Sequence record: OK148440
Strand: one strand, 5' to 3'
DNA from: Escherichia phage MLP3
DNA: 64,000 nt
Shown here: positions 12,055 to 34,226 of the stretch, one piece after another
Layout of the letters: each line of letters opens with the position of its first letter
Position numbering within the stretch: position 1 is the stretch's first letter
The notes under the pieces: model-generated
Database searches by the model: none
What the model was told of the DNA's origin: nothing
Seen by the model: only the letters and a program-made list of their open reading frames with translations
Position numbers and translations under genes: made by a program

Positions 12055-12588
12055 TTATACACCCTTAGATGCAACTACACCATTACTGCCGTTGTATCGA
12101 CCCTTCACTGCATAAGAGTCATCACCAGCGTGAGAGTGTTCGAACATAACCATTTGACCAACACGCATCCCAGCACGAACTCGTAAGCTATGATTATGGG
12201 TAACGTTATGAAATTCAAAGGTTAGTTTACTGCTGTTAAACCCTGCATCAGCCCAACCAGCATGGAGGTGGTTTAAACCACAACGAGCCATTGAGGAGCG
12301 AAGTACAAACAGGCTTGAGATGTTATCTGGAAGGTTAAACTCTTCCATTGAGTGCGCTAAGAAGAATTGCCCCGGAGTGATAACAATACCATCTTCAGGG
12401 ATTTTTACTTCTTTCCACTTGAGGTTTTCTTTAGCATCAATGTCAACAATTCCGTCAGCCTGTTCTTCAACAAGGATAGTATCACCAATACGGATATCCA
12501 CGCTAGCAGCGTTAACATATTTATGCTCCGCATCTAAAAAGCCATTATCAATAACGCTGTGTAATTCTTGAGAACCTAAAAGACTCAT
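12055..12588 (-). CDS. dcd: dCTP deaminase
   Basis: dCTP deaminase/dUTPase-fold motifs VDIRIG, GWADAGF, GRYNGSNG. Confidence 0.8.
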   Translation of the reverse strand: MSLLGSQELHSVIDNGFLDAEHKYVNAASVDIRIGDTILVEEQADGIVDIDAKENLKWKEVKIPEDGIVITPGQFFLAHSMEEFNLPDNISSLFVLRSSMARCGLNHLHAGWADAGFNSSKLTFEFHNVTHNHSLRVRAGMRVGQMVMFEHSHAGDDSYAVKGRYNGSNGVVASKGV

Positions 12589-14036
12589 GAGTTTCTGTTT
12601 CCTTGTACAGATGATGCCAAATTATTAATCATGTTACGAGCTGTTTCACGAGATAGTGTAACACCTGCTAAGTTGTTATGAAGCTCACCAGATAGCTCAC
12701 GAGCAGCAGCTCGAAGTTCTGTACCAAGTGTAGTATCGGAGTGAGCCAAACCATTACGACGACTATAAGGTCGAGGAGCTTCGTTAGCGTCATTAGCCAA
12801 TGATGCAAAACCAATACGAGCAGCTTCACGAGCCGCTATAGTTGACACTCGATCTTCCGTAGGGGTTGGCAAATCACCAACTTCTACACGTTCTATATCA
12901 CCAGCACGTAGACCCTGAGCGACTGAGCTTACTGTTTCCCATGAACGACGAGAACGCTGTAAATCACCCATTGACGGAGAAGGAATAGGACGAGCAGTTC
13001 CTCCTTGGACATGCCATGTACGAGTATCCATTCCAGAAGAGCGTGCACTACCAAAACTGCCAGTGAAAGTGTCACGAGGTGCCATTGTAGGAGGAACTGC
13101 GAATCTTTCCTGTTGCCAAGAATCGCGTCTGTTAGTTCCCGGAGTCCAAGGTTGTTCAATTGCTTCAGCACCGATAGTAACTAATCCACTAGACCATTCT
13201 GTCTGTAGGTTAACTTCTTCATCAAGATAAATACGACCCCTTTCCTGAGGAATATTTAATGCAACCTCCATCATCTTCAGGGTATAATGACGACGTTGAT
13301 TCTGGTATAAGTTTACACCAGCCATAGGTCCAACTAACTCACTGATTGGATAAACTTCTGGCTCACCAAAAGCACCCATCGCAAGGTGCATGTATTCGGT
13401 AGAACTGCTATAAACTGCAACAGTTGCTTCAGGCCACTTTTTGTAGACATACTTCATTTCACGGCCTGTCACCACAGGGATAGAATCAGTATATGCCATT
13501 GCAAACAAACCTTCGTTTGACACATACATATCATTAAGAGTCATAAATCCTTGACAGATCATAGGGAAACGACGACTCAAAGTATCCATATCCAAAGGTA
13601 GATTAATCATCATCTGGATTTTAACTTGATCAATCTCAATTTCCAGAATCTCTTGGAAAGTGAAAAGTGATTCAGTATAGGTTGTTCCACTGATAGGCTG
13701 AACTAAGCGAGATGTGGTTTGAAGTCCTTTACTTTCTGTCCAAGATAAGAAGTTGTCAAGGAAAAGTGCAGCATTACCTGCGTTAGCAGGGCTGTTTTCC
13801 TGACGAGTGTTCCAACGAAACCCTCCTTGAACTAGGAAGATATCAACATCATTCGGAGTTCGATTTTGGAAGAACGTATCACGGATAGCACCACCTGCAA
13901 TAACAGGATAGATGCCATCAGGAACTACGTTGTCTCTGATCAGATTGCGAATCAGATCAAGCCCTACGCTGAGGGCTTCTCCTTCTTGAAGGTTTAATTC
14001 AGACAATGGAATCTTAATCATTTCTACATTTTCCAA
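12585..14036 (-). CDS. Pol-beta superfamily nucleotidyltransferase (CCA-adding/polyA-polymerase-like head domain)
   Basis: IAGGAIRD ... DVDIF matches the GG-x-VRD / DxD motif of tRNA nucleotidyltransferase head domains; C-terminal 250 aa low-complexity. Confidence 0.55.
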
Positions 14037-14572
14037 TTTAGAGATGGGGGATTCTTATAATCAAATCCAGCCATTTGACAAAGACACATGTAAACTTTAA
14101 CTGTCAAGTTAACGTCTTGCTCACAATAGGCGAACATGTCTTCAGTGAATGCGTCCCATGCCTCCTCCTGTTCTCCATAATCTCCTTTCAGCTCCCCAAG
14201 AAACTCGCCCCATTGTTTGAGGCCGTGACCACGAGGGCCATGTCTAGGGTCGCCTTTGGGGTATTCTGGACTATCACCAATACGGTCAGGCTTGAGATAT
14301 CTACTCAGGCACAAAGTATCGAAGACGTTAAAGCGAAAAGGTATCACATGAGAATAAAACTTAAACAAAGCAGGAAGGTCAAAATCAATAATATTGTGAC
14401 CTATTACTACATCAGCTTCTTTCAGTTTGTGTAGTGCTTCTTCAATTTGGTGAGGGCGATACCCCCACCGCTCTCCAGATAATACATCAAATATCCAGAT
14501 ACACCAGACATTCTGAATACCATCATAGAGATTATCCCCCTCAATATCAAACGCATACAGTTTCTTTACCAC
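14024..14572 (-). CDS. DEDDy 3'-5' exonuclease (stand-alone PolA proofreading domain)
   Basis: Exo I FDIEGD, Exo [11 protein letters not shown], Exo III YCEQDV. Confidence 0.8.
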
Positions 14573-16356
14573 GGACGTGCCTCCCCTTCTTGTGCAAGTA
14601 AGGAAGCTGCATCCTCTCCATTGGTAACGGTAAAAGGATGCTCTTCATCAACTTCATGATCTTCTCGTTCTACAAGACGACCTGTTTCATTGATGTATTT
14701 GGTATAGCAAACCCCTGTCTGTCCATAGTTACGCTCTTTGAGCAGTCGTATGATTGACAAGTTTTTACCTAACCCATCCGCTTGTTTGTTACGTTCAAAA
14801 CCAATAATACACTGACACCAGCGCATCAATGAACGTGAACCAGTAAACTGTACTTCTTTAACCTGACCACCTTCTTCGTGGGGTGCACCACCTGCCGGAG
14901 CGTTCAAGTGAGATAATACAAAAGCAGTGAAGTCTAATTCCTTACACATACCAGCAAGCTCTGAAGCAATCTTGCTGATTTCTGTGTTTACCTCAGATGG
15001 GGTTAAGTGAGATACCAATGCAGTGATGTTATCAAGAATGATAAATTTACACTGATTCTCAACTACCCAAAAGCGAATACACTGCTTAATGTCTTCCCAC
15101 TCGTTCTGCCCAAAGTTGTCATACAAGAAAAACTTATCAGCGTATCGAAGTGCTTCATCTCGTAGCTGGCTTTCTTCGTACTCAACATCCGGTCGGTGGA
15201 ATGGAATAGATGCAGATTTACCTGCAATGTTCTTAACAGACATGCCTACCTTCTCTTCCAAGAAGAAGCCACCACCATTAAAACCATGCTCAAGGCAAAG
15301 CCATGCTACTAGTTCGTGTGCGATTAAGGTTTTACCTGAACCAACACCACCGCCGATTGCAACCATCTCTCCCCAACGAATACCAAAGGTCATGTCGTTA
15401 AGAGTTTTCCACGGATAAGGAATACCCCATTCCGCTTTCTTCAGAGCATCTTCGAGGCAATCAAAAACTGTAACAGCGCCGGCAGGAGATTCCCGCTTAG
15501 CTGAATACTTCAGATTGTTGAAAAGCTCTTGACCTCTCCCTGCAAGTAACATGTCGTTTGCATCTTTGATTTCCTTTTCTTGTCCGTTATAAGTGAACGT
15601 ACCTTTTGGAATCCTTGCAAACTTAACATGCGGGTACAGAGAACGACCCTTAGTTAAAGCAATCTCACCTGCATCATCATTGTCCATGCAGAGTACAATC
15701 TCCTCGAAACCATTAATAAAATCACGGTTTCTTGATAATACAGAAGAGATTGAACCTGCACCGAACGGAAGAGAGACGCAAGCAGGTTTGATGTTAGTTG
15801 CGTTTGTAAACGCGGTAAGTACGTGGAACCCAGACATACAAGAGAGAGGATCTTCAAAGATGAAGAGTTTCTTGTTGTATACGTCACCACGTTGTGCTTG
15901 AGCCATACCAAACAAGTCGGCTTCTTTCACATTACCTACATAATAGAACTTCTTGCTGTCTAGAAGTTTTACTTCATATCCAACAATGTTCCCATCACGT
16001 TCACGAGGGAAGAAGTAGCTGTCAGGAGTTTGACCATCTGTTTGGCTTAAACCGATACGGCATCCATAACGTTCAGATACAGCTTTAGGAATTAAGCGAC
16101 GAGTCAACTCTCCCTGAGGAAGCTCTAAGCAATCGTCTAAGACTTCTCGGAGTTCTTCAGGGGACAGCTCTTTCTTTTCATTAGGAGTGGGCGTCGTTCC
16201 TTTCTCGAAGATTTCATACGCACCACATCTGTTACATGAACCCCACTCCTCACCGGACTCTTCATTTCGGAAGAGAATCATGTGATTGCGGGTCTTATCA
16301 CGACCATGAGAGATACACTCTTTACAGCCTGTGTCTCCCAAAATGATCTTTGACAT
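14566..16356 (-). CDS. primase-helicase (T7 gp4-like; zinc-finger + TOPRIM + DnaB-type helicase)
   Basis: N-terminal CKEC...CNRCG zinc ribbon; Walker [10 protein letters not shown]; helicase motif SHLN. Confidence 0.85.
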
Positions 16357-16391: not shown

Positions 16392-16598
16392 TTAGTAAAA
16401 CGATCGTATTTCTTCCCACACATCATCTTGCAAGTTTCTAAAACCCTGCAAGGTTTGCTTTGTTCTGTGAATAAATTCTTCAGAGTGCTTATCAGGTGTG
16501 AGCATACTGACAAACTTTTCATAGCGATTAATCTTCCACCGCATCTTCAAGTAGTCAGATTCCAGCTTTCTTAACTTCTGCCTGTCAGTTACTGTCAT
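16392..16598 (-). CDS. small hypothetical protein (ORF 16392..16694 trimmed to internal ATG)
   Basis: ATG at 16598 with AGGTGAGAAGG upstream; longer form overlaps the GGCT-like gene by 110 nt. Confidence 0.35.
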   Translation of the reverse strand: MTVTDRQKLRKLESDYLKMRWKINRYEKFVSMLTPDKHSEEFIHRTKQTLQGFRNLQDDVWEEIRSFY

Positions 16599-17016
16599 CC
16601 TTCTCACCTGCCAGATATGCTGTCCAGTCACCAGATTCAACCAGAACATCTTGTTCTTCGTCGATGTGATAAATCCATGCTTCCACAGTTTCACCGCTAT
16701 CCAATAATACTGGAATCAGCGTACGCTTGTAAAAGGTGTATGGGTTATCATTACCACGATGACCTTCTAGACCGTCATACGGACCTTCCAGACCAGCTTG
16801 GGTTGTTTCAAAGACTTCTACACGAACAGGCTTACCATTGCTATCATGCTCCAAAGATACACTTGGGAAGTATGCTGTGCAATACTGATACAGGTTACAG
16901 TTGTTGACTGTCCACCCTTCACCAATAGACACACCACCTGCACGAGCGTTGATAGCGTGGTTGTGTTGACCTTTACGAAGAGAACCATACGTTGCAACTA
17001 ATACTTTATCAGACAT
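16585..17016 (-). CDS. gamma-glutamyl cyclotransferase-like (AIG2/GGCT fold) protein
   Basis: N-terminal VATYGSLRKG motif characteristic of GGCT/AIG2-like proteins; about 143 aa. Confidence 0.6.
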   Translation of the reverse strand: MSDKVLVATYGSLRKGQHNHAINARAGGVSIGEGWTVNNCNLYQYCTAYFPSVSLEHDSNGKPVRVEVFETTQAGLEGPYDGLEGHRGNDNPYTFYKRTLIPVLLDSGETVEAWIYHIDEEQDVLVESGDWTAYLAGEKDDSN

Positions 17017-17020
17017 TACA

Positions 17021-17218
17021 TTACCTTTTGTTTAAGATTTCTTTTGTACAAGAAGTCCCGTTACACACGAGAATTGTTTGAGTTACAGAATCGACAACCG
17101 TTACATGACTGCCACATTGAGTTATGATTTGACCTCTCCCTGAATCTTTAGAGATACACTCATCAGCGGCAATTGCTGATACGCTGAACAAGGAGAGTAG
17201 GAGTAGAATCTTTTTCAT
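17021..17218 (-). CDS. small secreted Cys-rich protein
   Basis: Signal-peptide-like N-terminus MKKILLLLSLFSVSAIAA; six Cys. Confidence 0.5.
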   Translation of the reverse strand: MKKILLLLSLFSVSAIAADECISKDSGRGQIITQCGSHVTVVDSVTQTILVCNGTSCTKEILNKR

Positions 17219-17224
17219 GGCAGC

Positions 17225-17641
17225 TTACCAATCATATTCGAAACCAGAATAGCCGGAGAAGAGGATTGATCGGATTGTCTTTTCAGGAAATTCTTCAAAA
17301 CTTTCCTTAATAGCCCCCTTGGTTTCATCAGACACTGATCCTTTTTCACCAAACCAATATTCTCCAAAAATGTCAGAGAAGGTATAGGTTCGATATTTTT
17401 CCAAGTAGTAACAACCTTCCACCGCATCGGTAACCTCCTCACTGATGACACAAGAAGCTACAGGGAAAAGTGAGCTGTGCTCCATAAACAAACACCAACG
17501 ATTAAAGAGAGGAATCTCTTCATCTTTCAGAAGACTTTCTAATTCTTCCTTTGCCTCTTTCTTGTGCTTCTCAAAGAGGTTTTTGGAATACTCTACATCT
17601 AAGATATGGCTTTTAAACATATCCAGTTTATTGTCAACCAT
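17225..17641 (-). CDS. hypothetical protein
   Basis: 138-aa ORF. Confidence 0.5.
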   Translation of the reverse strand: MVDNKLDMFKSHILDVEYSKNLFEKHKKEAKEELESLLKDEEIPLFNRWCLFMEHSSLFPVASCVISEEVTDAVEGCYYLEKYRTYTFSDIFGEYWFGEKGSVSDETKGAIKESFEEFPEKTIRSILFSGYSGFEYDW

Positions 17642-17698
17642 TTTACAACCTCCAGTTAAATTCGAACTAGCCCCCTCTTTCGAAGAGGCTAAAGCAAA

Positions 17699-17884
17699 TT
17701 ATTCTACTTCGAAGTGTTTGATCACACCAGTCAGTACATCAGATTGGAACGTACCTACTAGCTCTGTACCTCGGAAAAAGTTAACACTTGTTCCAAGTGA
17801 TTCAAAGCGATCTGCTTGAATGTCCAGAGATTGAATATTTCCTTCTGCTGACATTGTACGAAACATGATTGTGTATTTATTCAC
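17699..17884 (-). CDS. hypothetical protein
   Basis: 61-aa ORF. Confidence 0.4.
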   Translation of the reverse strand: MNKYTIMFRTMSAEGNIQSLDIQADRFESLGTSVNFFRGTELVGTFQSDVLTGVIKHFEVE

Positions 17885-18123
17885 AGACTTGTTACTCCCT
17901 TATCTGCTTGTGCAATTGCGATGATACGCTCAGCACATTCCATTGAATATTTATCACCTCGTTTGAGGAAGGTGATGATTGCAGAGAACTGATTACCAAT
18001 CATTCTCTTATTTGTGATACCGAACTCTTCACAGAGTTGGTTGATAGCTTTACGAGAGCCTACAATCAGAGGCTCTTTTTCTTCGGTCATTCCACGGCTG
18101 ATCAAATCTTCGATAGACAACAT
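17881..18123 (-). CDS. hypothetical protein
   Basis: 80-aa ORF. Confidence 0.45.
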   Translation of the reverse strand: MLSIEDLISRGMTEEKEPLIVGSRKAINQLCEEFGITNKRMIGNQFSAIITFLKRGDKYSMECAERIIAIAQADKGVTSL

Positions 18124-18149
18124 TACAAATTCCTTTTTGTTTAATTTAA

Positions 18150-19385
18150 TTACAGAGTTACTGCTACTTCGCTACCCTCAACATTGACAGACTCTAACTT
18201 GCGAGGGTTATGAATCTGGACTGGATTGACCGGAACGTTCCAACCACTGCGGTAGAAGTTACGACCATCACAGAACAGGATGACATTGGCAGACATTGCA
18301 TTCGGTTGCAGGTTGTTGTGGACATGACGGATATTTGCAATCCAGTAGCCACGAGACAAAGTGTAGCCAGTAGGTGCATTACGAATAGTTTGAGTATTCA
18401 TCTGACCTTCCAGTTGCATTTCTTCAGGAACCACATCAACTGAATCAATCGGCTGTGCTACTTGTCCTTCCAGTGCAAAGTTTTCATCATCAGCACTTTC
18501 AATATCATCCACCAACTCACCGTCTCCATCTTCAATCGGAGTCTGGTAAACCACTTTATACTGAGGAGTATAGAGAGGGTTTTGAGCTTTAACAAACTCA
18601 AGAATGTTATGACGGTAGGTATCCAGAGTTGTACCAGTCAGGCCCGGTGCTGTATTAACTTCCAGTACCCACGCTTCTTGACCTTTGGTGATAATATCAA
18701 CTGCACCGAAATCCAGACCCATTGATTCAACAGCTTTCACTGCATTGATCAGAGAGGCGTCATTCGGAGCATCTGTGAAGGAGCTTGAGTAAACCCAGCC
18801 AGTGTGGTGATTACGAATATCTTCACGATAGTTAGGGTCTTCGCGATAACCATTGCGACGAATCTTCTTCTGAACATAGGTGATTACACCTTTGAACACA
18901 TGGACACGCCACTCACGACGTGGGCCTTGAATGCCTTTAGTGTACAGTTCAGCTCGACCAAGACCATCACCCGGTTCTACAACAACAATGCCCGAACCAG
19001 AGTGACCAGTCAGCTCATGGCGCTCATACACAATATTACCAGTGTTTGACCACTCTTGAGCAGTCTCTTGAGCATCTGTGTATTCCACAGTTTTAACACC
19101 TGCTTGGTCCATCACGCTGAAAGCACGACGTTTGTTCGCTGCCATATGTAAGGCTGCGGTACGGTTAAGGACGGTTGCAGAACCAAAGAATGATTCAGGA
19201 TAGCGACGGTTCCCGTAGTTAACAACCACATCACCTTCACGAGAACGCCAGCGGCTATTCTCTGAAAGAAGACCCATCACGTTAGCATTGATGCGTTCAT
19301 CACGGATAGTATCACTGATAGCAGATACTAGAGCGTTAACAGAATCAGACGGGCCATACGGAAGAACACGGATACGAGTAGTCAT
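18150..19385 (-). CDS. ATP-grasp family ligase
   Basis: ATP-grasp signature WVLEVNTAPGLTG and glycine-rich ELTGHSGSGIVVV. Confidence 0.7.
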   Translation of the reverse strand: MTTRIRVLPYGPSDSVNALVSAISDTIRDERINANVMGLLSENSRWRSREGDVVVNYGNRRYPESFFGSATVLNRTAALHMAANKRRAFSVMDQAGVKTVEYTDAQETAQEWSNTGNIVYERHELTGHSGSGIVVVEPGDGLGRAELYTKGIQGPRREWRVHVFKGVITYVQKKIRRNGYREDPNYREDIRNHHTGWVYSSSFTDAPNDASLINAVKAVESMGLDFGAVDIITKGQEAWVLEVNTAPGLTGTTLDTYRHNILEFVKAQNPLYTPQYKVVYQTPIEDGDGELVDDIESADDENFALEGQVAQPIDSVDVVPEEMQLEGQMNTQTIRNAPTGYTLSRGYWIANIRHVHNNLQPNAMSANVILFCDGRNFYRSGWNVPVNPVQIHNPRKLESVNVEGSEVAVTL

Positions 19386-19387
19386 TT

Positions 19388-19618
19388 TTAGATACCTTTT
19401 AGTTTAAGAATTTCGTTACGACAGGATTGAATTTTAGCTTCGATTGCCCAATACTCAGCGAACATTTCGTCTTCTTGGTCATCGCTTGGAGAGTCGATTA
19501 AGTTAAAAGCAAACGGATACAGCTTTCGCTGCTCCGTTACCAGTTGTTGAAGTCGGAGTTGTTGATACTCCAGCATTGTCAGGTGAGGCTTAGCTCCCTT
19601 GCTTGACATGAGGCTCAA
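19388..19618 (-). CDS. hypothetical protein
   Basis: 76-aa ORF. Confidence 0.45.
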   Translation of the reverse strand: MSLMSSKGAKPHLTMLEYQQLRLQQLVTEQRKLYPFAFNLIDSPSDDQEDEMFAEYWAIEAKIQSCRNEILKLKGI

Positions 19619-19823
19619 CTTTAATCCCCTTCATTTTAACATAGTCAGCCAACACGTTATTGATAACGGTTGGAAAAGGGATTTCTACTGGAGAGTCAAC
19701 CAGCTTCCCAATACCTTCTTGCATCCACTTCTGGATTGCTCGGAGGTTATCACATCCTGTGCTTGTCATCGGAATACGGCGGGTAGTTACCACGTTATCC
19801 AACATCAGTTTACGAACTTCCAT
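19590..19823 (-). CDS. hypothetical protein
   Basis: 77-aa ORF. Confidence 0.45.
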   Translation of the reverse strand: MEVRKLMLDNVVTTRRIPMTSTGCDNLRAIQKWMQEGIGKLVDSPVEIPFPTVINNVLADYVKMKGIKVEPHVKQGS

Positions 19824-19834
19824 AACTATACCTC

Positions 19835-21868
19835 TTAGTGTTTACCTTTACAGTAATCTGAATTACAGATCACCCTGTTTTCTTTGTTCAGTGAGCAAGT
19901 TTCTGCATCACGCCACGGAATTTGTTTATAACAAACTGCACAAAACCCAATTGAAGTCCAGAGGGCTTTTGTAAACTCAGCTGTTCGTTGTCCATCGTAA
20001 CTGACAACTGTTTTTCGGAGAGAGGTTGACTTTTCTGGAAATGTCTCCGCTTTCTCAGCGGGTACCTCCTTTGGGGCATTCTTTGGACCATAAACAGAGA
20101 TGGCATAAGTATCACCACCACGTTTTTCCAAATACGAATTAGGAACATCTGCAAGTGTGATGTCCCCTGAACGTTTTGCTGAGCTGACCATTACAATCAT
20201 ACGGCTAAGCATACGTTCATCAACACGAACAGCTACTTCAGGACGACGTGGGTTGGTTGTGTCCACTGCTTTAGTCCAAATATAACCCTCAGACAGCGTA
20301 ACATTCTTTACTTTGTCTTTGATTTCTTTGGAGCAGATATAACAAACATCTTCACCACGAAGTTTACTCATTTCGTTGTCAAACTCGAAATCAGTCTTGA
20401 CTTCACCACAGATAGCACATACACCCAAAGGCACATCTTCTTCCTCTTCAGAGGTTTTAGATAACGCTTCGAAGCATTCTGGATGCCAGTATGCCTGATA
20501 AGCAAACACAGCCTTACGAGCATCTTTCCAGTCAATGTGCTTATCACAACCACCACAGTCACCATGAGAGTGAGATTCCCAGAACTTACGAGTGACTTCT
20601 ACACCATTCTTAGTGATGAAGGAGTCCTCTGCATCAAAAGGGATATCATCATCAAAATCAGCAGTAGTGCTTTGAGGCTCCTTATCTGTAGCATCAACAA
20701 ACAGCCCTGAAGTTAGTACGAGGCGAATCATACTGTCCACTTCGGAGATACAAGCAATCGTCCCGCGATATACTACCTTTGGGTTTTCAAGAGCCTTAAG
20801 ATATTCATCTTTGGCTACGTTGTGAACATCCCCTTCGACATACTCTTGAGCTTTATCATCGTAGATGTAACCAACCATCTTACCACGATCTGTGTTGTTA
20901 TAAGCATGGAACTCGTGAGGAATAATATCCACACGACCATCACGACGATAAGGAAGACCACGATCGGCAGCCAGTTTGTTCTGGTCTTCAATCGCTTTAC
21001 GACGACGAATGTCTCCGCTTGTCACGCCGGGCTTGTCGTCTTTGTTTCCGTAAATGTCGCTTGTGCTGCTGCTTGATTTGTTTGTCTGTTGGTTCTGATA
21101 AAGAGAGGAGTTCGAGTAATAGCCGCCCCAGCGACTCGTTACCGTAAAAACCGGAAGCGTGTGCTCCACCTCTTGAACCAGAGTCATACGACTGTTAGAC
21201 ACATCAAAGATATACTCAGTTCCCACTTTACATTCGAAGTGGTCATTGATACGGTTCTTATGGGACTTAGAACGCTCTAAAATCCACATAAGCATAGCTT
21301 CTTCAGAAGCTCCAAACCAATCCAAACCACAGCGGGCTAGGTGGAAAGGACGCTCATCATTACGGATAATGTGAAGTGTGTTGTCTTTAGCATCATGCCA
21401 AATCAAAGTGAATGCACCATCCAGTTTTTGGATAGTCTCTGCTGCTCCAATGGTGTTAATTGAGTGGCAGATGTTTTCACTATCAACTTCGAAACGCTTA
21501 CTGTCAGGAAGGAGATCTTGATCTAACAGGGTTCCATTATGAACCAGAGTAATATCCCCGTGAGTAAATGGGTGAGCATTTCGAGCATTGACAGCCCCAC
21601 GAGTGGCATGTCGGCTGTGACCAACAATCCACGAAGGAGGAACTACGTAGTTCGTAAGCCCTTTGGTAATATTTGTATATTCTGTCTGGAGCATAAAAGC
21701 ATAAGAAGGAAGAGCTTCTTTATAAGAGAAGACTTGCTTTTCACCTTTACGCTGACCAAACACACCAGTTGAGTGCTGTCCACGGAAAACACCAGCATAC
21801 AGAAGTTGGTTGAAAATGTCCAAATCTGCTGAGGTCATGTTGCCGCCAGCTAATACGATACCACAAAT
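19835..21868 (-). CDS. class II (Ntn) glutamine amidotransferase fused to a Cys-rich C-terminal domain; probable AUU start
   Basis: GlmS-like HSRHATRG...NAHPF and LVHNGTL motifs; in-frame upstream codons ATT-TGT-GGT-ATC-GTA encode (I)CGIV matching the MCGIV N-terminus of GAT-II enzymes; AGGTGG SD 8 nt upstream of ATT; TAG two codons further upstream. Confidence 0.7.
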   Translation of the reverse strand: MCGIVLAGGNMTSADLDIFNQLLYAGVFRGQHSTGVFGQRKGEKQVFSYKEALPSYAFMLQTEYTNITKGLTNYVVPPSWIVGHSRHATRGAVNARNAHPFTHGDITLVHNGTLLDQDLLPDSKRFEVDSENICHSINTIGAAETIQKLDGAFTLIWHDAKDNTLHIIRNDERPFHLARCGLDWFGASEEAMLMWILERSKSHKNRINDHFECKVGTEYIFDVSNSRMTLVQEVEHTLPVFTVTSRWGGYYSNSSLYQNQQTNKSSSSTSDIYGNKDDKPGVTSGDIRRRKAIEDQNKLAADRGLPYRRDGRVDIIPHEFHAYNNTDRGKMVGYIYDDKAQEYVEGDVHNVAKDEYLKALENPKVVYRGTIACISEVDSMIRLVLTSGLFVDATDKEPQSTTADFDDDIPFDAEDSFITKNGVEVTRKFWESHSHGDCGGCDKHIDWKDARKAVFAYQAYWHPECFEALSKTSEEEEDVPLGVCAICGEVKTDFEFDNEMSKLRGEDVCYICSKEIKDKVKNVTLSEGYIWTKAVDTTNPRRPEVAVRVDERMLSRMIVMVSSAKRSGDITLADVPNSYLEKRGGDTYAISVYGPKNAPKEVPAEKAETFPEKSTSLRKTVVSYDGQRTAEFTKALWTSIGFCAVCYKQIPWRDAETCSLNKENRVICNSDYCKGKH

Positions 21869-21945
21869 TTTCTAATCCACCTGAAGGGTAAACCCTTTCA
21901 TCTAATTAACCTTTAAATGCGCCCTGTATAAGAGCGCCCGTTGTG

Positions 21946-23046
21946 TTACAGCAGTCGTTCTAATTGCATTTCCAGATGGTCTGGAATATAACCAGTGACG
22001 TTATCATCACTGCTACCTGATTCACGCATCAATGCAAACATGTGACGAATTTCACGAACCGTTGCGATTCGAGTGCTTTCAATCTGAGGGGTGTAGTAGG
22101 TCATGATCTCTTCGTAGACACTGTTGGCATTACCGCGCACATATCCCAAGAAACCATAGAAGTCATTCATATCACGTAAGTTGATAAGGACTTCACCATC
22201 AGGGCCAGTCTGTTGCACACGAACACGACCAACCAAAGTTACAGATTGCTCACGACAGAAGAGAATATCACGAGCAAGACGATACCCTTCAGTGAGATCA
22301 CTGTCTCTTGGAGTATAGTCTAGGGGTAGATGTTGAATCATAGGAGCGAAGCGCAGCTCATTCAACTTCTCAACATAAGCTTCATTGTCTAAATCTGCAT
22401 ATTCAACAGCAAGTTTCTTGAGAACCAAGAAGCGGTTGACCAGATTCAGAAGTTGGCTCTTTTTCCACTTCGGCTCTGAGATACGGAACTCAACAGAACC
22501 AAATTGAGATAGAGGCAAAAGATTAAGGGAGGTATATTTATCCCAGCTATTAACAAGAGAGTGGAAGAAAGCTTCCCCGTCTCGGTTGAACGCTGACGAA
22601 GCATTCATAACTTGTGCTTGAACGACAGCAAAAGCTGGACAGAAGTTGCTACGATAGCGATGGTATCCAGAACATTTGAACATCATCTTTTCATAGAACG
22701 TCCATCCAAGAATAACTTTCTTAAGGATATTACTATCAGCGTCACGCATATCCATATGAACGTGAGTGGAGCAGCGCCAAGTTCCCTCGGCTCCAGAATC
22801 CTGTACTGCTTCACTCAGATTGTTAATAGCACGAAGTAATTCTTCACCGTTGTAAGGTCGTGCACATACTAATTCACAACCATCACGAAGAGAGCCATCT
22901 TCAGTACAAACCCACATATCAGCGTCAATGTCAGTTGTACCTTCGACTTCTAACTCAATACCAACACCACACTGAAAAGCAATACTTGGATGCGGTTCAG
23001 ATAAGCGAGGGTTACGGTATCCAAAAACTTGTGCTACGGTTGTCAT
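21946..23046 (-). CDS. carboxylate-amine ligase (amidoligase / GCS2-like)
   Basis: GVGIELEVEG and STHVHMDM motifs resembling GCS2/YbdK-type carboxylate-amine ligases. Confidence 0.55.
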   Translation of the reverse strand: MTTVAQVFGYRNPRLSEPHPSIAFQCGVGIELEVEGTTDIDADMWVCTEDGSLRDGCELVCARPYNGEELLRAINNLSEAVQDSGAEGTWRCSTHVHMDMRDADSNILKKVILGWTFYEKMMFKCSGYHRYRSNFCPAFAVVQAQVMNASSAFNRDGEAFFHSLVNSWDKYTSLNLLPLSQFGSVEFRISEPKWKKSQLLNLVNRFLVLKKLAVEYADLDNEAYVEKLNELRFAPMIQHLPLDYTPRDSDLTEGYRLARDILFCREQSVTLVGRVRVQQTGPDGEVLINLRDMNDFYGFLGYVRGNANSVYEEIMTYYTPQIESTRIATVREIRHMFALMRESGSSDDNVTGYIPDHLEMQLERLL

Positions 23047-23669
23047 AATGATTCCACCAACTCTACATTATATGATGACAGGTCTGAAGAAATATGCTTG
23101 AACTTCTCCAGAAGGTTTAAAGATTGACGACCATTGTCGCCATAACCAGCTTCAAGAAGCACGTTTCCAACGTAAGCCCCTTTGTAATAAACTTTTCCAT
23201 CGACAGGATTGATATAGATGAAACGAGTAACCAACCCTTCAAACTCTGGATTAAACAGGTTATACACCAAATCACCCGGAATCGAACGTCCGAGAGAAGG
23301 TGGAGTACCACGAAGTTTATTCCCCATCAAGCCTTTAGCTCGCTGACGAACAGGGTTGATATGGGTCCAGCTCACCATGTTATTACCATGCTGAAGGTAT
23401 CCTACATCTGGAGACTCCAGAATGAGGCTGTGATCAAACACTGGGATATTACTAACAATCTGACGTTCAAACTGACCTTCAGAGTTTTTAGTCCAGCGTT
23501 CCGCCTCAAACACTAAAGACATTTCAGCGTCGTGTGAGTAGTCGTCAATATCAAAGTTACCTTGCTGACGAACATCAAGCACATATAGAGGGAGGTTTTT
23601 ACCATCAGGTGATCGCTGAGCAATCCATGTTCCACAATAATAGTGTTGAAAATCTCTTAACAAGCTCAC
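23043..23669 (-). CDS. hypothetical protein in amidoligase cluster
   Basis: 208-aa ORF translationally coupled to neighbours. Confidence 0.5.
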   Translation of the reverse strand: MSLLRDFQHYYCGTWIAQRSPDGKNLPLYVLDVRQQGNFDIDDYSHDAEMSLVFEAERWTKNSEGQFERQIVSNIPVFDHSLILESPDVGYLQHGNNMVSWTHINPVRQRAKGLMGNKLRGTPPSLGRSIPGDLVYNLFNPEFEGLVTRFIYINPVDGKVYYKGAYVGNVLLEAGYGDNGRQSLNLLEKFKHISSDLSSYNVELVESL

Positions 23670-23678
23670 AATATCACC

Positions 23679-24530
23679 TTATACAATCTGGAGTTTAGAG
23701 GAGAATTTATCCGCTTCTTTAACATCGTTACTGTTGATGATGTTGTGAAGCTTTTCAATTGGAAGGCGAGAGTGAAGTGACATCAATACTTCCATATCAC
23801 AGCCTTGAACAACCTTATCAACTTGCTCATAAACAAACTTGCGGGTTGACTTCTCGCCAATCCAGAAGTTAGAAAGAGAACGATATTCAATACCGTAATC
23901 TTTGTAGCGAATGGCAGAAGCCTTTCCGTATAACTCTTTACGACGAGTATCTTTATCCATGATCACAGCTGGCAAGGACAGGAAGTAATCACACAACACA
24001 CCCAACATCATTTGAGTCTGACGACTAATTTCCAGCGTACCAGTGACGCCAAGGTGAACATGACCGCCAGCAGTACGCAGACCTTTGTCTGTCGCTACTG
24101 GAGATGGGTTTTTCTGACCAGTGAAGGCGTTGAAATCAGGAGTACAACCAAATACAAAGGCTGACGGATGGAAAGATTCCAGCTCTTCTGAAGTGAACAC
24201 ATGAGAGCTAATCCCAAGTGCTGCCTCCATGCCACGTTCATTGAGAACTTTGTTAGTCAGATCAATACCACGCTGAATGTTATCATTAAACGCTTCAAAC
24301 CCTTTCTGTGGGTTAATATCGAACTCGGCCAGAACGTTGTCTTCTTGAAGACGAACATCAGGGGCCAGATCAATTTTGTTGTCTTTAGAGCAGCCCAGCT
24401 TACCAGCCACAGAGGTGATAATACCAGAAGCAGTACGAACAAACATTTCAGGGTCAGAACCAATAAGGAAAGCACGCTTAGTCATTGTAATACTCCACGA
24501 GTTCATCAAAAAGGGAAACAACACGAGCAC
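23679..24530 (-). CDS. second amidoligase-like protein (tentative)
   Basis: FLIGSDPEMFV and GGHVHLGV motifs reminiscent of the E-x-E and HVH motifs of carboxylate-amine ligases. Confidence 0.4.
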   Translation of the reverse strand: MLVLFPFLMNSWSITMTKRAFLIGSDPEMFVRTASGIITSVAGKLGCSKDNKIDLAPDVRLQEDNVLAEFDINPQKGFEAFNDNIQRGIDLTNKVLNERGMEAALGISSHVFTSEELESFHPSAFVFGCTPDFNAFTGQKNPSPVATDKGLRTAGGHVHLGVTGTLEISRQTQMMLGVLCDYFLSLPAVIMDKDTRRKELYGKASAIRYKDYGIEYRSLSNFWIGEKSTRKFVYEQVDKVVQGCDMEVLMSLHSRLPIEKLHNIINSNDVKEADKFSSKLQIV

Positions 24531-25428
24531 CAGCTTCTTCTGGTGTCATTGAGGAAGGTACTGCTTGCATCAGTCGTTCGATAAAACTGCGAACAGTAAT
24601 TCTGTCCATACGCTGATCTAATACTTCTCTCTTGTGACCTGCACAAGTTGACCAGAGACGCAACCACTCACTCATACTCTCGTAATGGTCAGGGTCTTGG
24701 TCACGACGACGTGCCATACGACGGAGAACTCCATCATTGTGGTTTCGTACATAACCATCTCGGTTATCATCAACACCGAACACATTCTGAACCCATACGT
24801 TTTCAGAAAATTCATCAGTGGTGCAAATTAGTGGCAGAAATGCAATTGCACTCATGTCACCATCAAAATAAGTCGCTGCTGACTCGTCAGTTGAGTCTAC
24901 GTCATTACTATAACACCAGCGACCAAAGAAGTTACGACTTAAACCAGCTAAGCGTAGAGCTAAACCGATTCGTTGTCGCTTAAGCAACTCTTCCTTGTCT
25001 TGTACGCCTTCCTGAAGGAACTCCATTCCATTAAAATCACCATCCAAATAGCTACGGATGGTCATTAGTCCAGTAAACACCTTGTCTGCTGGATGGTTTC
25101 GAAGGTTCACGGCAATGGAGTTCACCGAAGTGACAGAGAACATATCTTTATAGCAAGACATTGAGTTAAAAATATCTGTTGCTTCAACTAAAGCTCTTTC
25201 GATATCTTTAGCTGGCACGCCATAAAAATTGTGAGGCCAGAAGTTAATAACTTCAATTTCTGAAGTTCTATCACGAAGGCTTGTTCGGTTACGACTTTCA
25301 CCGTTAATGTCTGTAACAGAATACATGTGCATACAGTTAAAAGTACCAAAGCAAGCTCTTCCTTTGAACACTGACTCACCGAAATCCTCTGCCGGTGTTA
25401 CCGGAGCAATCGATGCGGAGATTGACAT
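24478..25428 (-). CDS. hypothetical protein in amidoligase cluster
   Basis: 316-aa ORF. Confidence 0.55.
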   Translation of the reverse strand: MSISASIAPVTPAEDFGESVFKGRACFGTFNCMHMYSVTDINGESRNRTSLRDRTSEIEVINFWPHNFYGVPAKDIERALVEATDIFNSMSCYKDMFSVTSVNSIAVNLRNHPADKVFTGLMTIRSYLDGDFNGMEFLQEGVQDKEELLKRQRIGLALRLAGLSRNFFGRWCYSNDVDSTDESAATYFDGDMSAIAFLPLICTTDEFSENVWVQNVFGVDDNRDGYVRNHNDGVLRRMARRRDQDPDHYESMSEWLRLWSTCAGHKREVLDQRMDRITVRSFIERLMQAVPSSMTPEEAGARVVSLFDELVEYYND

Positions 25429-25436
25429 ATTCGCCT

Positions 25437-26654
25437 CTATTTATTAAAGAATAATTTTTCCATAATGGTTTCCCACTCTTCTGAGGGGAGGGTTGAGAAC
25501 CCGTTTCCGTGAAGCCTGTTTGTCATGCAACTAATAATATTGTACATGTTGTAGCTTCGGGTGGATTCTGTTCCATTGTTCCAGTTATAACCGAAAACAA
25601 TTTTATCGAAGGAGGTTTTATCCGTAGTTACTTCTCGGATGAACTCAACCAAGAGCGATTTCTCTGTGATGACCGCACGTTCACCATCTGGCAGATTACA
25701 ATACTGAGGAAGAAGGATTGGTAAGAACATCGAATTGTTCACTCGACAATCACGAACACCTTCACTGCGATAGATTAGGCTTGAGAAGTCTTCATCACGC
25801 AGGTGTCCTTCACCTTCAGTGTATTCACACTGTCGCCATTTGGTCTGGCGAGGTTCAATCATTGTACTGCCAACGCCTACTGTATACAGAGACGCTTGGA
25901 AGATACACGAGTCGTAATCATTCCCTGTTAAAGCAACTTGCTCATTGCCGAACACATCCACTGAAGAGTTAATCAGTCGGCTGAATGCAAGAGAGGCTAG
26001 TGGAGACCAACCTTTCTTATACATCTTGTTCAGCATTTCATACACAGCAGATTTTTCATCATCTGTATAGAATGTACGATTCAGCATCAGATAGAACAGA
26101 GCGCGATCAGCAGGACAACCATCAGTACAAACACCCATGAATCCTACTTCATGCCATACCAGACATGAGTCAGAATCTTTATCCATGAATGCTTCAAAGG
26201 CTTCCATTACAGCCCTGTCAGTAACATCAGGACGGTTGTTTTCTTCTGCCCATGTTTCTACATGAGAAGGAGGACGAGGGTCTCCATTCTCCACCCCTTC
26301 GCGGAAATATTGAGTGGTAATAGGCTTTTTATCACCATAACGTTTTACACCATAAGCGGGAAGGTGTGTACCAGAGTTCCAGATGTACTTAATTTCGGAC
26401 ATAGGCATCATGTTTTCGAGAACGTTCTCTTCAGCAGTGCCTTGACGAACCATCATATTTTCACTCCACACCTTAATGCGGATATTCCAGCCGTAGTTGC
26501 TGTCATACGTGTTATAATAATCAGGATCACCATCTTCATCTTCATCATAATCACCACCCTGATAGTAACCTGCTTTCAGGAAACCATAACAAGGAGGCCA
26601 GACGGTTACAACATCATCTGATTCTTTCCAGCTTTGAAGTGTTACAGGGAACAT
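25437..26654 (-). CDS. hypothetical protein in amidoligase cluster
   Basis: 405-aa ORF. Confidence 0.55.
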   Translation of the reverse strand: MFPVTLQSWKESDDVVTVWPPCYGFLKAGYYQGGDYDEDEDGDPDYYNTYDSNYGWNIRIKVWSENMMVRQGTAEENVLENMMPMSEIKYIWNSGTHLPAYGVKRYGDKKPITTQYFREGVENGDPRPPSHVETWAEENNRPDVTDRAVMEAFEAFMDKDSDSCLVWHEVGFMGVCTDGCPADRALFYLMLNRTFYTDDEKSAVYEMLNKMYKKGWSPLASLAFSRLINSSVDVFGNEQVALTGNDYDSCIFQASLYTVGVGSTMIEPRQTKWRQCEYTEGEGHLRDEDFSSLIYRSEGVRDCRVNNSMFLPILLPQYCNLPDGERAVITEKSLLVEFIREVTTDKTSFDKIVFGYNWNNGTESTRSYNMYNIISCMTNRLHGNGFSTLPSEEWETIMEKLFFNK

Positions 26655-26665
26655 CTTTTACCTCT

Positions 26666-27028
26666 TTACTCTGCTACCAAAAGGCTCAGAGATTTGCGAA
26701 TGTAGTCAATACTACGGAAGTTTCGATAATTCTCTTGGAAGCGCATCTTTTCAAACTCTGCTTCCTGAAGCTCTACCTCTGCTGCTTTATATCCTGATAA
26801 AGCTAAACTTACCACATCCTGAGGTAAGGTATTACGACGGCGAATAAGATATTTATTCGCTTTTAGTTTACCTTGTGCACGAGCCATTTTGGCCTTTGCC
26901 GCCTTGATACCATGAGAAATCCAAAGCAGTTGCTGTTTCAGATCTTCCTCATCCATACCACCTAAATCATTTGCTACTTTATGCAGCGTAGACAGGTTCA
27001 CATGGCCTTTAATGGGGCGTAGGTTCAT
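26666..27028 (-). CDS. hypothetical protein
   Basis: 120-aa ORF. Confidence 0.5.
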   Translation of the reverse strand: MNLRPIKGHVNLSTLHKVANDLGGMDEEDLKQQLLWISHGIKAAKAKMARAQGKLKANKYLIRRRNTLPQDVVSLALSGYKAAEVELQEAEFEKMRFQENYRNFRSIDYIRKSLSLLVAE

Positions 27029-27192
27029 AACTTCTCCTGTTTGTCACATTGATTGGTTAGCCAGTTGTAAGACCCACTGTTGTTCTTGCTTAACTCGCAA
27101 GATGCAAAAGAGTACATCCTGACAAACCCCACAGTGGCTAAGCAAATAAAGATTGCTGCCAATAAGAATTTAGCTTTCAACTTATTATCCAT
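27025..27192 (-). CDS. small membrane protein (55 aa)
   Basis: ATG at 27192 with GAAGAGG SD; hydrophobic LLAAIFICLATVGFV; stop overlaps next ATG (ATGA); below ORF-track cutoff. Confidence 0.35.
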   Translation of the reverse strand: MDNKLKAKFLLAAIFICLATVGFVRMYSFASCELSKNNSGSYNWLTNQCDKQEKL

Positions 27193-27212: not shown

Positions 27213-27237
27213 AAAAAAGGACTCTCCTAAGAGAGCC
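27213..27237 (-). terminator. intrinsic terminator-like hairpin downstream of conserved element R1
   Basis: Minus strand GGCTCTC-TTAG-GAGAGTCC followed by TTTTTT. Confidence 0.45.
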
Positions 27238-27943: not shown

Positions 27944-28357
27944 TTAAACAACGAATTGGAACGCTTCGTATCCAAACTTATATAAGAAATCGTGTTTGAA
28001 CTTCGTTACACGACCACGGTCACGGAAAGATTTCAGACGGTTACTGAACCCAGCCATCGGCTCAGGGTCAATAGGACTACGAATCTTCATAGCTACAGAG
28101 TGCAGCTTGAAGCGCTTACCAGTGCTACATGCCATCATCACATACTCCATACGAGTAGTCCAGATGTTAAGCACCATACTTGTTTTCTCCGCTGACCAAC
28201 CAGTCTTGCGGGCGATTTCCTTATGGATGTTAAGCTCCAAAGGAAGTGGGAATTGCTTGTTGAATGAAGCCGGATAGAGTTTGACCAGAAGATCAATGTT
28301 TTCTTTATACGTTAAGTAAGCTAATTTCTTGCTTACGTTGGGGAATTTCCCAGACAT
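27944..28357 (-). CDS. ProQ/FinO-domain RNA-binding protein (tentative)
   Basis: N-terminal region LVKLYPASF...PLPLELNIHKEIARKTGWSAEKTSMVLNIWTTRMEY resembles the ProQ/FinO domain. Confidence 0.45.
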   Translation of the reverse strand: MSGKFPNVSKKLAYLTYKENIDLLVKLYPASFNKQFPLPLELNIHKEIARKTGWSAEKTSMVLNIWTTRMEYVMMACSTGKRFKLHSVAMKIRSPIDPEPMAGFSNRLKSFRDRGRVTKFKHDFLYKFGYEAFQFVV

Positions 28358-33839: not shown

Positions 33840-34226
33840 TCAGTCACGGGAGCTATTATTGAACACTAAATCACCACAATACATCGGATTGGTATACCAC
33901 TTTGGCACCCCTTCGCTCTTACTCTGAAAGTATGTACCACTGTATAAAGGCACATAATCTTTCTTCAGTGCACGCCTTGCAAGCCGCTCGCTTTCTCTGA
34001 TTGATTTCTTTATCAGAGGGTTATCATCACGAATTAGCTTTACATAACGCTTAAAAGGTTTCTCCTTCTTTAATAGGACGGGTATCCACTCGAACTGGTT
34101 TCGTTGATTTATAACCTGCTCGGCAGTCAGTTTTCGTTGTGACATTCTGTTTATTACGGTATCCGCTACTAATGCTTTGCAAGCGGTTGGCTGATTCCCT
34201 GCCTCATAATAAATAGTCAATGTCAA
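33840..34226 (-). CDS. SleB/CwlJ-like cell wall hydrolase domain protein (TTG start as in ORF track)
   Basis: LTIYYEAGNQP...ALVADTVINR resembles the Hydrolase_2 (SleB) N-terminal motif. Confidence 0.45.
   Translation of the reverse strand: MTLTIYYEAGNQPTACKALVADTVINRMSQRKLTAEQVINQRNQFEWIPVLLKKEKPFKRYVKLIRDDNPLIKKSIRESERLARRALKKDYVPLYSGTYFQSKSEGVPKWYTNPMYCGDLVFNNSSRD

Follow-up and report, generated by a model that had tools for sequence, protein, structure and literature searches.

The DNA analysed here, 64,000 nucleotides (nt) of Escherichia phage MLP3 (sequence record OK148440; hereafter the window), raises the question of what a phage makes with a tightly packed minus-strand block of genes (positions 16585-27028) that encodes three predicted amide-forming ligases, a class-II glutamine amidotransferase (GAT) and a gamma-glutamyl cyclotransferase (GGCT). 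The block is the phiEco32-type cassette, a real element that has been described before and to which the present analysis brings refinements only: the ATT start codon of the GAT gene, the paralogy of two proteins that had no assignment, a near-universal beta-barrel protein, the synteny of 88 loci, an exchange between GGCT and Peptidase_C26, and the correction of two database names. At the chemical level, the cassette very probably specifies a glutamate-centred, multi-step amide-ligation pathway. What this pathway acts on is a question that we answer tentatively, with a preference that falls short of even confidence: a soluble, cytoplasmic, early pathway that would build a short glutamate-containing, amide-linked moiety on an acceptor, preferably a protein or peptide.

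The block resides in a member of the Gordonclarkvirinae/Kuravirus group, the phiEco32-like podoviruses with prolate heads. Megablast of positions 16585-27028 against phage records matched 98 records, 22 of them with at least 80% query cover, the top matches being Escherichia phages HC-25922, IME267 and 4E8 (98.2-98.5% identity over the full length). Bas87 is 98.5% identical across 94% of the query and has the same gene order as the window, with dCTP deaminase, 'nucleotidyltransferase', exonuclease subunit and primase/helicase genes followed by the block. The open reading frames (ORFs) proposed in the initial annotation were all recovered on the minus strand at the coordinates given there, and every ORF of the block is strongly matched in PHROGs (E 1e-41 to 1e-195). 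Passages in three papers that cite the cassette in phages of Pseudoalteromonas, Pseudomonas and OM43 credit the term 'putative peptidoglycan modification cassette' to Iyer et al. (2009) and Hardies et al. (2013), and offer the hypothesis of a cell-wall change that blocks superinfection (PMC5498523, PMC11945000, PMC10580990). Published passages also report the cassette in RIO-1, phiEco32, 7-11, PA11, tf, MR299-2, LUZ24, PaP3, CW02 and PSA-HP1. The LUZ24-like phage UFV-P2 has the same gene order, ending at the primase/helicase, and tf, 7-11, K4 and others carry the same families in the same order, one of which (PF14395) is named after phiEco32. The window shows no essential difference from this arrangement, being set apart by the ATT start, a DUF7020 insertion and small ORFs particular to Kuravirus. 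The literature searched agrees with the initial annotation, which stated that comparative genomics had already recorded neighbourhoods of this kind, with no substrate known. The sole functional data found come from PSA-HP1, in which the homologous genes are expressed immediately after infection (PMC7082346).

When searched by tblastn, the COOH-NH2 ligase of the cassette retrieved 310 phage records from Escherichia, Pseudomonas, Vibrio, Aeromonas, Proteus, Salmonella, Cronobacter, Klebsiella and other hosts, those named being Gram-negative genera throughout, and at least 570 relatives came to light when IMG/VR was scanned with a degenerate pattern. From 88 loci, each cassette component was collected by iterative hidden Markov model searches (counts in Table 1). 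The dominant order is L2-B-L1-GAT-ATP-grasp, in which L2 denotes the COOH-NH2 ligase, B a family represented here by a 208-aa protein, and L1 an Amidoligase_2. GAT adjoins Amidoligase_2 in nearly every locus, and a primase/helicase gene lies 3' of the cassette wherever the sampled flank extends that far. Because the same genes recur in the same order in many phages, the block is not a chance arrangement. GGCT and Peptidase_C26 are nearly mutually exclusive, both being present in two of the 88 loci and neither in nine. These two families are unrelated but both comprise cleavers of gamma-glutamyl amides, and they fill the same slot according to lineage. This exchange provides the strongest internal evidence for a gamma-glutamyl intermediate in the pathway, and strengthens the earlier proposal that the enzyme set may make and trim gamma-glutamyl-type amide bonds.

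GGCT proteins are recognized by a catalytic glutamate that is conserved and by an N-terminal substrate-binding motif, YGS/TL. Among 38 cassette GGCTs, conservation reaches at least 90% for Y10, G11 and L13 of the Y10-G11-S-L13 motif and also for E67 and E84; together with a Pfam match above cutoff, these residues uphold the GGCT-like call. The assignment of the ATP-grasp ligase likewise stands, on its PHROGs match and on ATP- and Mg-binding residues (K85, R122, G130/G132, D230 and E242-x-N244) whose conservation in 75 sequences is 90% or higher, with Pfam RimK (PF08443) just under its cutoff of 21 bits (19.6 bits for the window protein; 33.7 bits for the homolog of a GAP52-like phage at locus L018). 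Its best NCBIfam models are MptN (36 bits, cutoff 350), RimK (21.7 bits, cutoff 331) and CofF (15 bits, cutoff 300). These alpha-L-glutamate ligases are its best-scoring characterised relatives and have the Mg-ATP motif residues in common with it, and since the closest models are all glutamate ligases, the pathway is taken to be glutamate-centred. The phage protein nevertheless scores far under the equivalog cutoffs and has an extra C-terminal region of ~120 aa; it is an ortholog of none of the three, and its match to solved RimK structures spans only 40-60 residues around the ATP-binding motifs (193-258). On these scores, nothing supports the name 'ribosomal protein S6 glutaminyl transferase' given in databases.

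It is also conceivable, if somewhat unlikely, that the product is a free small molecule, either a glutathione-like or gamma-glutamyl-amine compound (such as a polyamine conjugate) or a folate or pterin with an altered glutamyl tail, the gamma-glutamyl group serving as a transient handle for protection or activation. Handles of this kind occur in the butirosin (BtrJ/BtrG), Puu (PuuA/PuuD) and ergothioneine (EgtA/EgtC) pathways, where a ligase adds the gamma-glutamyl group and a GGCT-like, C26 or GAT-II enzyme removes it, which is the logic of the cassette: its ATP-grasp and GGCT pair resembles BtrJ/BtrG, a glutamine synthetase-like ligase with C26 resembles PuuA/PuuD, and a ligase like gamma-glutamylcysteine synthetase (GCS) with GAT-II resembles EgtA/EgtC. 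In the record of phage tf, the GGCT is annotated with an InterPro signature that is BtrG-like; MptN and CofF, which are among the closest ATP-grasp models, are ligases of cofactor tails; and the window encodes ThyX, which implies that the phage depends on folate. The phages, however, possess three ligases and two extra families, while the tailoring enzymes and carriers of those pathways are absent; Pfam, PHROGs and NCBIfam revealed no pyridoxal phosphate enzymes, oxidases, carrier proteins or methyltransferases in the cassette. Zinc ribbons, beta-barrels and many fast-evolving paralogs would be unusual for such a pathway, and the block is without a transporter gene.

Ligation would further involve L1 and L2. 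Conservation was computed over 38-79 non-identical homologs per family and also across nine lineages. In L1, the E31-x-E33-x-E35 strand, which is of metal-binding type, H95-x-H97, E119, R130, E186 and R188 are each either invariant or conserved in 90% or more of the homologs. The description of this protein as a 'GCS2-like' carboxylate-amine ligase was right as to the class of enzyme, but the family is more precisely Amidoligase_2. L2 has 34 invariant residues, including D11, E13, R182, R193, E200 and R202 as well as H142 and H144, which with a PF14395 match above cutoff corroborate the prediction of a second ligase-like protein with an HVH motif. Its start is taken as the ATG at 24485 used in Bas87, where the ORF first listed ran to 24530. 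Aligned to each other with hhalign, L1 and L2 gave weak support, with the HVH motif alone in register; their homology is argued from shared motifs, synteny and Foldseek hits. Profile searches thus returned the ATP-grasp, GAT-II and ligase families and not unrelated ones, and the enzymes appear active in that they retain the expected catalytic-type residues. An NCBIfam scan of the cassette proteins matched the ATP-grasp and GAT proteins, weakly, and no other; PADLOC matched no cassette protein, and longer variants of these proteins yielded no informative extra domains.

The GAT protein combines an N-terminal nucleophile (Ntn) domain with a variable linker and Cys-rich motifs. Its N-terminus matches Pfam GATase_6 at 53.8 bits (cutoff 27), and also GATase_7 and GATase_4; this match and the zinc-ribbon-like motifs bear out the reading of a GAT-II domain fused to a Cys-rich region. 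The gene begins with ATT (21866-21868, minus strand), seven nt after an AGGTGGA Shine-Dalgarno sequence, so that the protein opens M-C-G-I-V. The initial annotation had correctly chosen 21868, which places the catalytic Cys at residue 2, whereas the ORF list and the 4E8 annotation begin at an internal ATG (21838) and lose this residue. In 80 homologs with an identifiable Cys-Gly motif, the codon just before the Cys is ATG in 72, ATT in five and ATC in one, and the non-ATG starts are scattered over unrelated lineages (L004:7657, L005:7663, L011, L028, L074 and L079). Residues C2, R29, R86, N111-G112, D129 and C438/C441/C465 are invariant across nine lineages, and R86, N111, G112 and D129 align with Arg73, Asn98, Gly99 and Asp123 of GlmS (BLASTP to the GlmS N-domain, E 2e-8). 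As the catalytic and glutamine-binding residues are invariant and aligned to those of GlmS, the site is predicted with confidence to bind glutamine, or else a gamma-glutamyl group whose alpha-amino acid end is free. An N-terminal Cys nucleophile and glutamine-binding residues are common to the phage protein and EgtC, GlmS, PurF and AsnB. The synthase domains of GlmS, PurF and AsnB are absent from it: profile searches detected no SIS, phosphoribosyltransferase (PRTase) or Asn-synthetase domain, and GlmS-type NCBIfam models align to residues 2-194 only, far under cutoff. In their place are the variable linker and zinc ribbons, which number from one to three and of which a CxxC...C ribbon beyond the GAT domain is kept in all nine lineages, and the window protein has three such motifs. 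Judged by this domain content, the database name 'L-glutamine-D-fructose-6-phosphate aminotransferase' is wrong. A phmmer search of the GAT protein against PDB gave no match.

Three further proteins, of 208, 316 and 405 aa, had been left unassigned. None has a sequence match in Pfam, NCBIfam, PADLOC or PDB, and their family profiles found nothing meaningful in PDB; the statement held as regards Pfam, but the 316- and 405-aa proteins belong to one family. On the evidence of motifs, they form a tandem pair of paralogs within a fast-evolving family that is specific to the cassette, here termed P, with one to four copies per phage. The 316-aa family is tiny (17 homologs, and 22 cluster representatives among 1.84 billion proteins). 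Although hhalign relates the 405- and 316-aa families weakly (E 0.075), their invariant motifs align exactly (PAD[RK]-x5-LM-x2-R and W-x-Q...G-[HY]-x-R-[DN]), and homology is argued from these shared motifs, synteny and Foldseek hits. A third motif, C-[FYW]-[GA], lies near the N-terminus in a MAFFT alignment that included the positional analogs of 7-11, Aeromonas phages, Vp_R1 and tf; it is present in 65 of 84 ORFs of 250-520 aa within 4.5 kb upstream of L2, compared with 2 of 199 other unlabelled ORFs of the same loci. R193 (405-aa numbering) is invariant and the motif Cys ~91% conserved. A confident model of the 405-aa protein, with a predicted local distance difference test (pLDDT) score of 91, matches no solved fold. 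Aeromonas phage 4_4572 (L009:5586-9990), and likewise locus L021, has four P paralogs in tandem, the displaced GGCT gene lying between them, indicating copy-number expansion of the family. For the 208-aa core protein B, R108 and G113 of its basic loop are conserved in all lineages; hhalign of B with its Zobellviridae analogs is weak (E 0.0017, probability 16%), homology being argued from motifs, synteny and Foldseek hits. A lysine in the basic loop was considered as an acceptor site and dropped, there being no lysine that is invariant across lineages.

These two families bear on the hypothesis already in print, that the cassette modifies peptidoglycan stem peptides, probably as cytoplasmic precursors, by adding or amidating unusual linkages, and that the altered wall excludes superinfecting phages. 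Peptidoglycan chemistry does use ATP-grasp ligases (Ddl and the D-aspartate ligase Aslfm) and, for the amidation of meso-diaminopimelic acid (mDAP), class-II GATs (AsnB1/LtsA), and peptidoglycan contains a gamma-glutamyl bond. The named hosts are Gram-negative and the early expression seen in PSA-HP1 would fit an exclusion function. Nevertheless, we regard this explanation as unlikely. A near-universal barrel protein and the P paralogs have no explanation in it, no Mur-ligase, LysM, SH3b, PG_binding or envelope-targeting feature was found in the core proteins or their longer variants, and the cassette neighbours replication genes rather than lysis genes. A change in precursors during a short lytic cycle would alter little of the existing wall and would not obviously block virion enzymes that cleave glycan. 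The literature searched contained no experimental support for it.

From the gene content, residues, synteny, co-occurrence and GGCT/C26 exchange described above, we infer the chemical steps, their order and the acceptor of the preferred pathway, in which a glutamate-containing moiety would be assembled on a protein or peptide. ATP and glutamine would be consumed, and L2, L1 and the RimK-like ATP-grasp ligase would each form one amide bond by way of an acyl-phosphate. GAT would probably dock through its zinc ribbon and supply ammonia that converts a carboxylate to a carboxamide, a role suggested by the lack of a fused synthase and by its adjacency to Amidoligase_2 in nearly every locus; alternatively, it may hydrolyse a gamma-glutamyl amide in the manner of EgtC. 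The GGACT-like enzyme would remove the gamma-glutamyl group as 5-oxoproline for deprotection, release or recycling, a task for which C26 would stand in elsewhere. B and the P paralogs, which have no recognisable catalytic fold, may be subunits that accept the moiety, act as a scaffold or confer specificity. An acceptor of protein or peptide nature, from the phage or the host, is favoured over DNA because the barrel fold of B is common in macromolecule binding, because GAT carries zinc ribbons and the P paralogs diverge rapidly and vary in copy number, and because the ATP-grasp ligase has weak matches to protein-modifying clades (RimK, R2K). The pathway is placed early in infection on account of the expression of the PSA-HP1 homologs, and it is read as soluble and cytoplasmic, no membrane-like hydrophobic segment having been found in any core protein.

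Several observations weigh against this proposal. All likeness to characterised enzymes is remote: NCBIfam scores fall far under cutoffs, and the L1 and L2 family profiles detected no relatives among PDB sequences. GAT could be a hydrolase instead of an ammonia donor. No lysine or glutamate that might mark B as the acceptor is invariant across lineages, and the 7-11-like phages have neither GGCT nor C26 near the cassette, which implies that these phages either do without the removal step or encode it at another place. Finally, no experimental or functional test of the cassette was found in the literature searched, more than 15 years after its first description. A more specific form of the proposal, a protein-directed glutamyl tagging or polyglutamylation machine with B and P as acceptors or targeting subunits and strongly acidic products that act in host takeover or anti-defence, is distinctly improbable. 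Pupylation (PafA/Dop), in which a carboxylate-amine ligase like glutamine synthetase or GCS acts with an amide-cleaving partner, offers a conceptual model for such tagging; the cassette differs from it in that its sequences revealed no relationship to PafA, Dop or Pup and no Pup-like tag was identified.

Restriction resistance of the Gordonclarkvirinae would be explained by a very improbable alternative, namely that DNA or nucleotides are what the cassette alters, an amino-acid-type base adduct being one example. In several lineages the cassette is the immediate upstream neighbour of the primase/helicase and, in the window, it lies close to dCTP deaminase and ThyX, where EcoRV, EcoKI and EcoP1 sites are not depleted in the window as a whole, so that site avoidance alone cannot explain the resistance. 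ThyX and dCTP deaminase are, however, ordinary enzymes of dTMP supply. According to the literature, DNA of the cassette-bearing LUZ24-like phage U17 is cut by 11 of 16 restriction enzymes, and that of phage tf was cut by RsaI, HpaI, EcoRV, SmaI and HaeIII and then cloned. Pfam, PHROGs and NCBIfam found no hydroxymethylase, 5-hydroxymethyldeoxyuridine (5-hmdU) DNA kinase, aGPT-Pplase, DpdA, glycosylase/transglycosylase, glycosyl- or amino-acid:DNA transferase or any further enzyme that acts on DNA in the cassette. Global DNA hypermodification was accordingly rejected as its conserved function, the DNA of relatives being cut normally; among the product classes that the initial annotation had considered, the peptide tag and the small molecule stay candidates whereas DNA modification is unlikely.

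In the window as a whole, several short palindromes occur less often than a first-order Markov model predicts (observed versus expected: CCWGG, 2 versus 83; CTGCAG, 0 versus 15; GATC, 131 versus 247; GGCC, 53 versus 110; GAATTC, 6 versus 22), while GATATC occurs 26 times against 16 expected and the sites of EcoKI and EcoP1 are likewise free of depletion. A 483-aa ORF (12585-14036, minus strand), flanked by the genes of dCTP deaminase and the polymerase exonuclease subunit, is the 'nucleotidyltransferase' of the Bas87 annotation, which the BASEL authors suggested as a possible DNA-modification gene; it has no match in Pfam or NCBIfam. The record of phage tf (L002) describes site-specific single-strand nicks (consensus TACT/RTGMC) inside cassette genes, with no apparent functional link.

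Table 1. Features of the phiEco32-type cassette and its boundaries in the window, with the number of loci, out of 88, in which each family was found
Feature	Position	Strand	Profile match	Characteristics	Loci
Terminator-like hairpin and T-run	27220..27237	-		Closes the upstream transcription unit, the block beginning just downstream; equivalent site is a terminator in the 4E8 annotation	
120-aa basic protein	26666..27028	-	phrog_11370 E 8e-60	Isoelectric point (pI) 9.8; Kuravirus-restricted	7
405-aa P-family protein	25437..26654	-		Acidic, pI 4.6; C22-Y-G, P-A-D183-R, R193, H284-x-R286	
316-aa P-family paralog	24478..25428	-		C26-F-G, P-A-D115-K, R125, Y226-x-R228	
L2, COOH-NH2 ligase type 2, phiEco32-like	23679..24485	-	PF14395 E 2e-8, 34.2 bits (cutoff 25); phrog_3815 E 2e-112		88
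B, 208-aa core protein	23043..23669	-		Small SH3/Tudor/Sm-like beta-barrels; conserved flexible basic loop, residues 104-119	84
L1, Amidoligase_2	21946..23046	-	PF12224 E 3e-8, 34.2 bits (cutoff 22); phrog_7469 E 4e-142		88
GAT, class II (Ntn)	19835..21868	-	GATase_6 E 2.6e-14	GAT domain at residues 1 to ~215, variable linker, three Cys-rich zinc-ribbon-like motifs	87
s77, 77-aa conserved small protein	19590..19823	-		R15, P18, I48-P49-x-P51	23
76-aa small protein	19388..19618	-		Kuravirus only	
ATP-grasp ligase, RimK-family-like	18150..19385	-	phrog_2599 E 3e-170	RimK-like at residues 1 to ~290; C-terminal extension	82
Two small ORFs, 80 aa and 61 aa	17699..18123	-		Kuravirus only	
DUF7020 protein (138 aa) and 65-aa ORF	17021..17641	-	Pfam DUF7020 E 2e-21	Between the GGCT gene and the small ORFs	
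GGCT, GGACT/AIG2-like	16585..17016	-	PF06094 E 9e-16, 59 bits (cutoff 22.8); phrog_2520 E 4e-41		46
Primase/helicase	14566..16356	-	Pfam DnaB_C and Toprim	Downstream cassette boundary; same neighbour in several phage lineages	
Peptidase_C26			Pfam Peptidase_C26 (in other lineages)		35

Within these boundaries, the genes are joined by junctions that are mostly overlaps of 4-20 nt (35 nt for s66/primase) or gaps of 2-11 nt. The description of the block as wholly translationally coupled was slightly overstated in view of gaps of 26, 57, 62 and 77 nt, although most junctions do overlap or nearly abut. At the upstream end, the gene of the 120-aa protein overlaps a preceding 55-aa ORF (27025-27192) by 4 nt. 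The s77 gene is found 3' of the GAT gene in Kuravirus, tf, 7-11, Vp_R1 and Aeromonas phages. No small ORF of the block fits a LysW-like carrier with an acidic C-terminus and a zinc finger. The 65-aa ORF has a hydrophobic, signal-peptide-like N-terminus; it and the DUF7020 gene are missing from the Bas87 annotation, and homologs were found in none of the other loci compared, so the pair is probably a strain-level insertion that lies outside the cassette. Further upstream on the minus strand are genes for a ProQ/FinO-like protein (27944-28357; E 4e-6, barely over the Pfam cutoff) and a SleB-type cell-wall hydrolase (Hydrolase_2; 33840-34226). PRPP-synthetase-like genes (PRPP, phosphoribosyl pyrophosphate) stand beside the cassette in Salmonella phage 7-11 (L003:1999-4562) and Aeromonas phage 4_4572 (L009:17009-17812), with a nicotinamide phosphoribosyltransferase-like (Nampt-like) gene too in 7-11, and resemble phage modules for the reconstitution of nicotinamide adenine dinucleotide (NAD). 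They were set aside as cassette components because they look like a separate NAD-related module, one that is absent from this window.

The cassette takes up ~8-10 kb, or 10-18% of the genome in the smaller phages, and its conservation extends over hundreds of virulent podophages. Their hosts include Escherichia, Pseudomonas, Vibrio, Aeromonas, Klebsiella and marine bacteria, and several of these phages are candidates for therapy. The system is experimentally tractable, in that the BASEL phages Bas86 and Bas87 (~98% identical to the window) infect E. coli K-12 with restored O-antigen. Identification of the product would give functions to two Pfam amidoligase families without solved structures and to two more families of proteins, of which one has a fold that is apparently new. 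If the protein-tagging form of the proposal were true, the cassette would represent a new kind of phage-encoded post-translational modification system, and acidic products, such as a glutamylated DNA mimic, might explain the restriction-modification resistance of the Gordonclarkvirinae. More broadly, the cassette could uncover new host-manipulation chemistry or a new anti-defence route.

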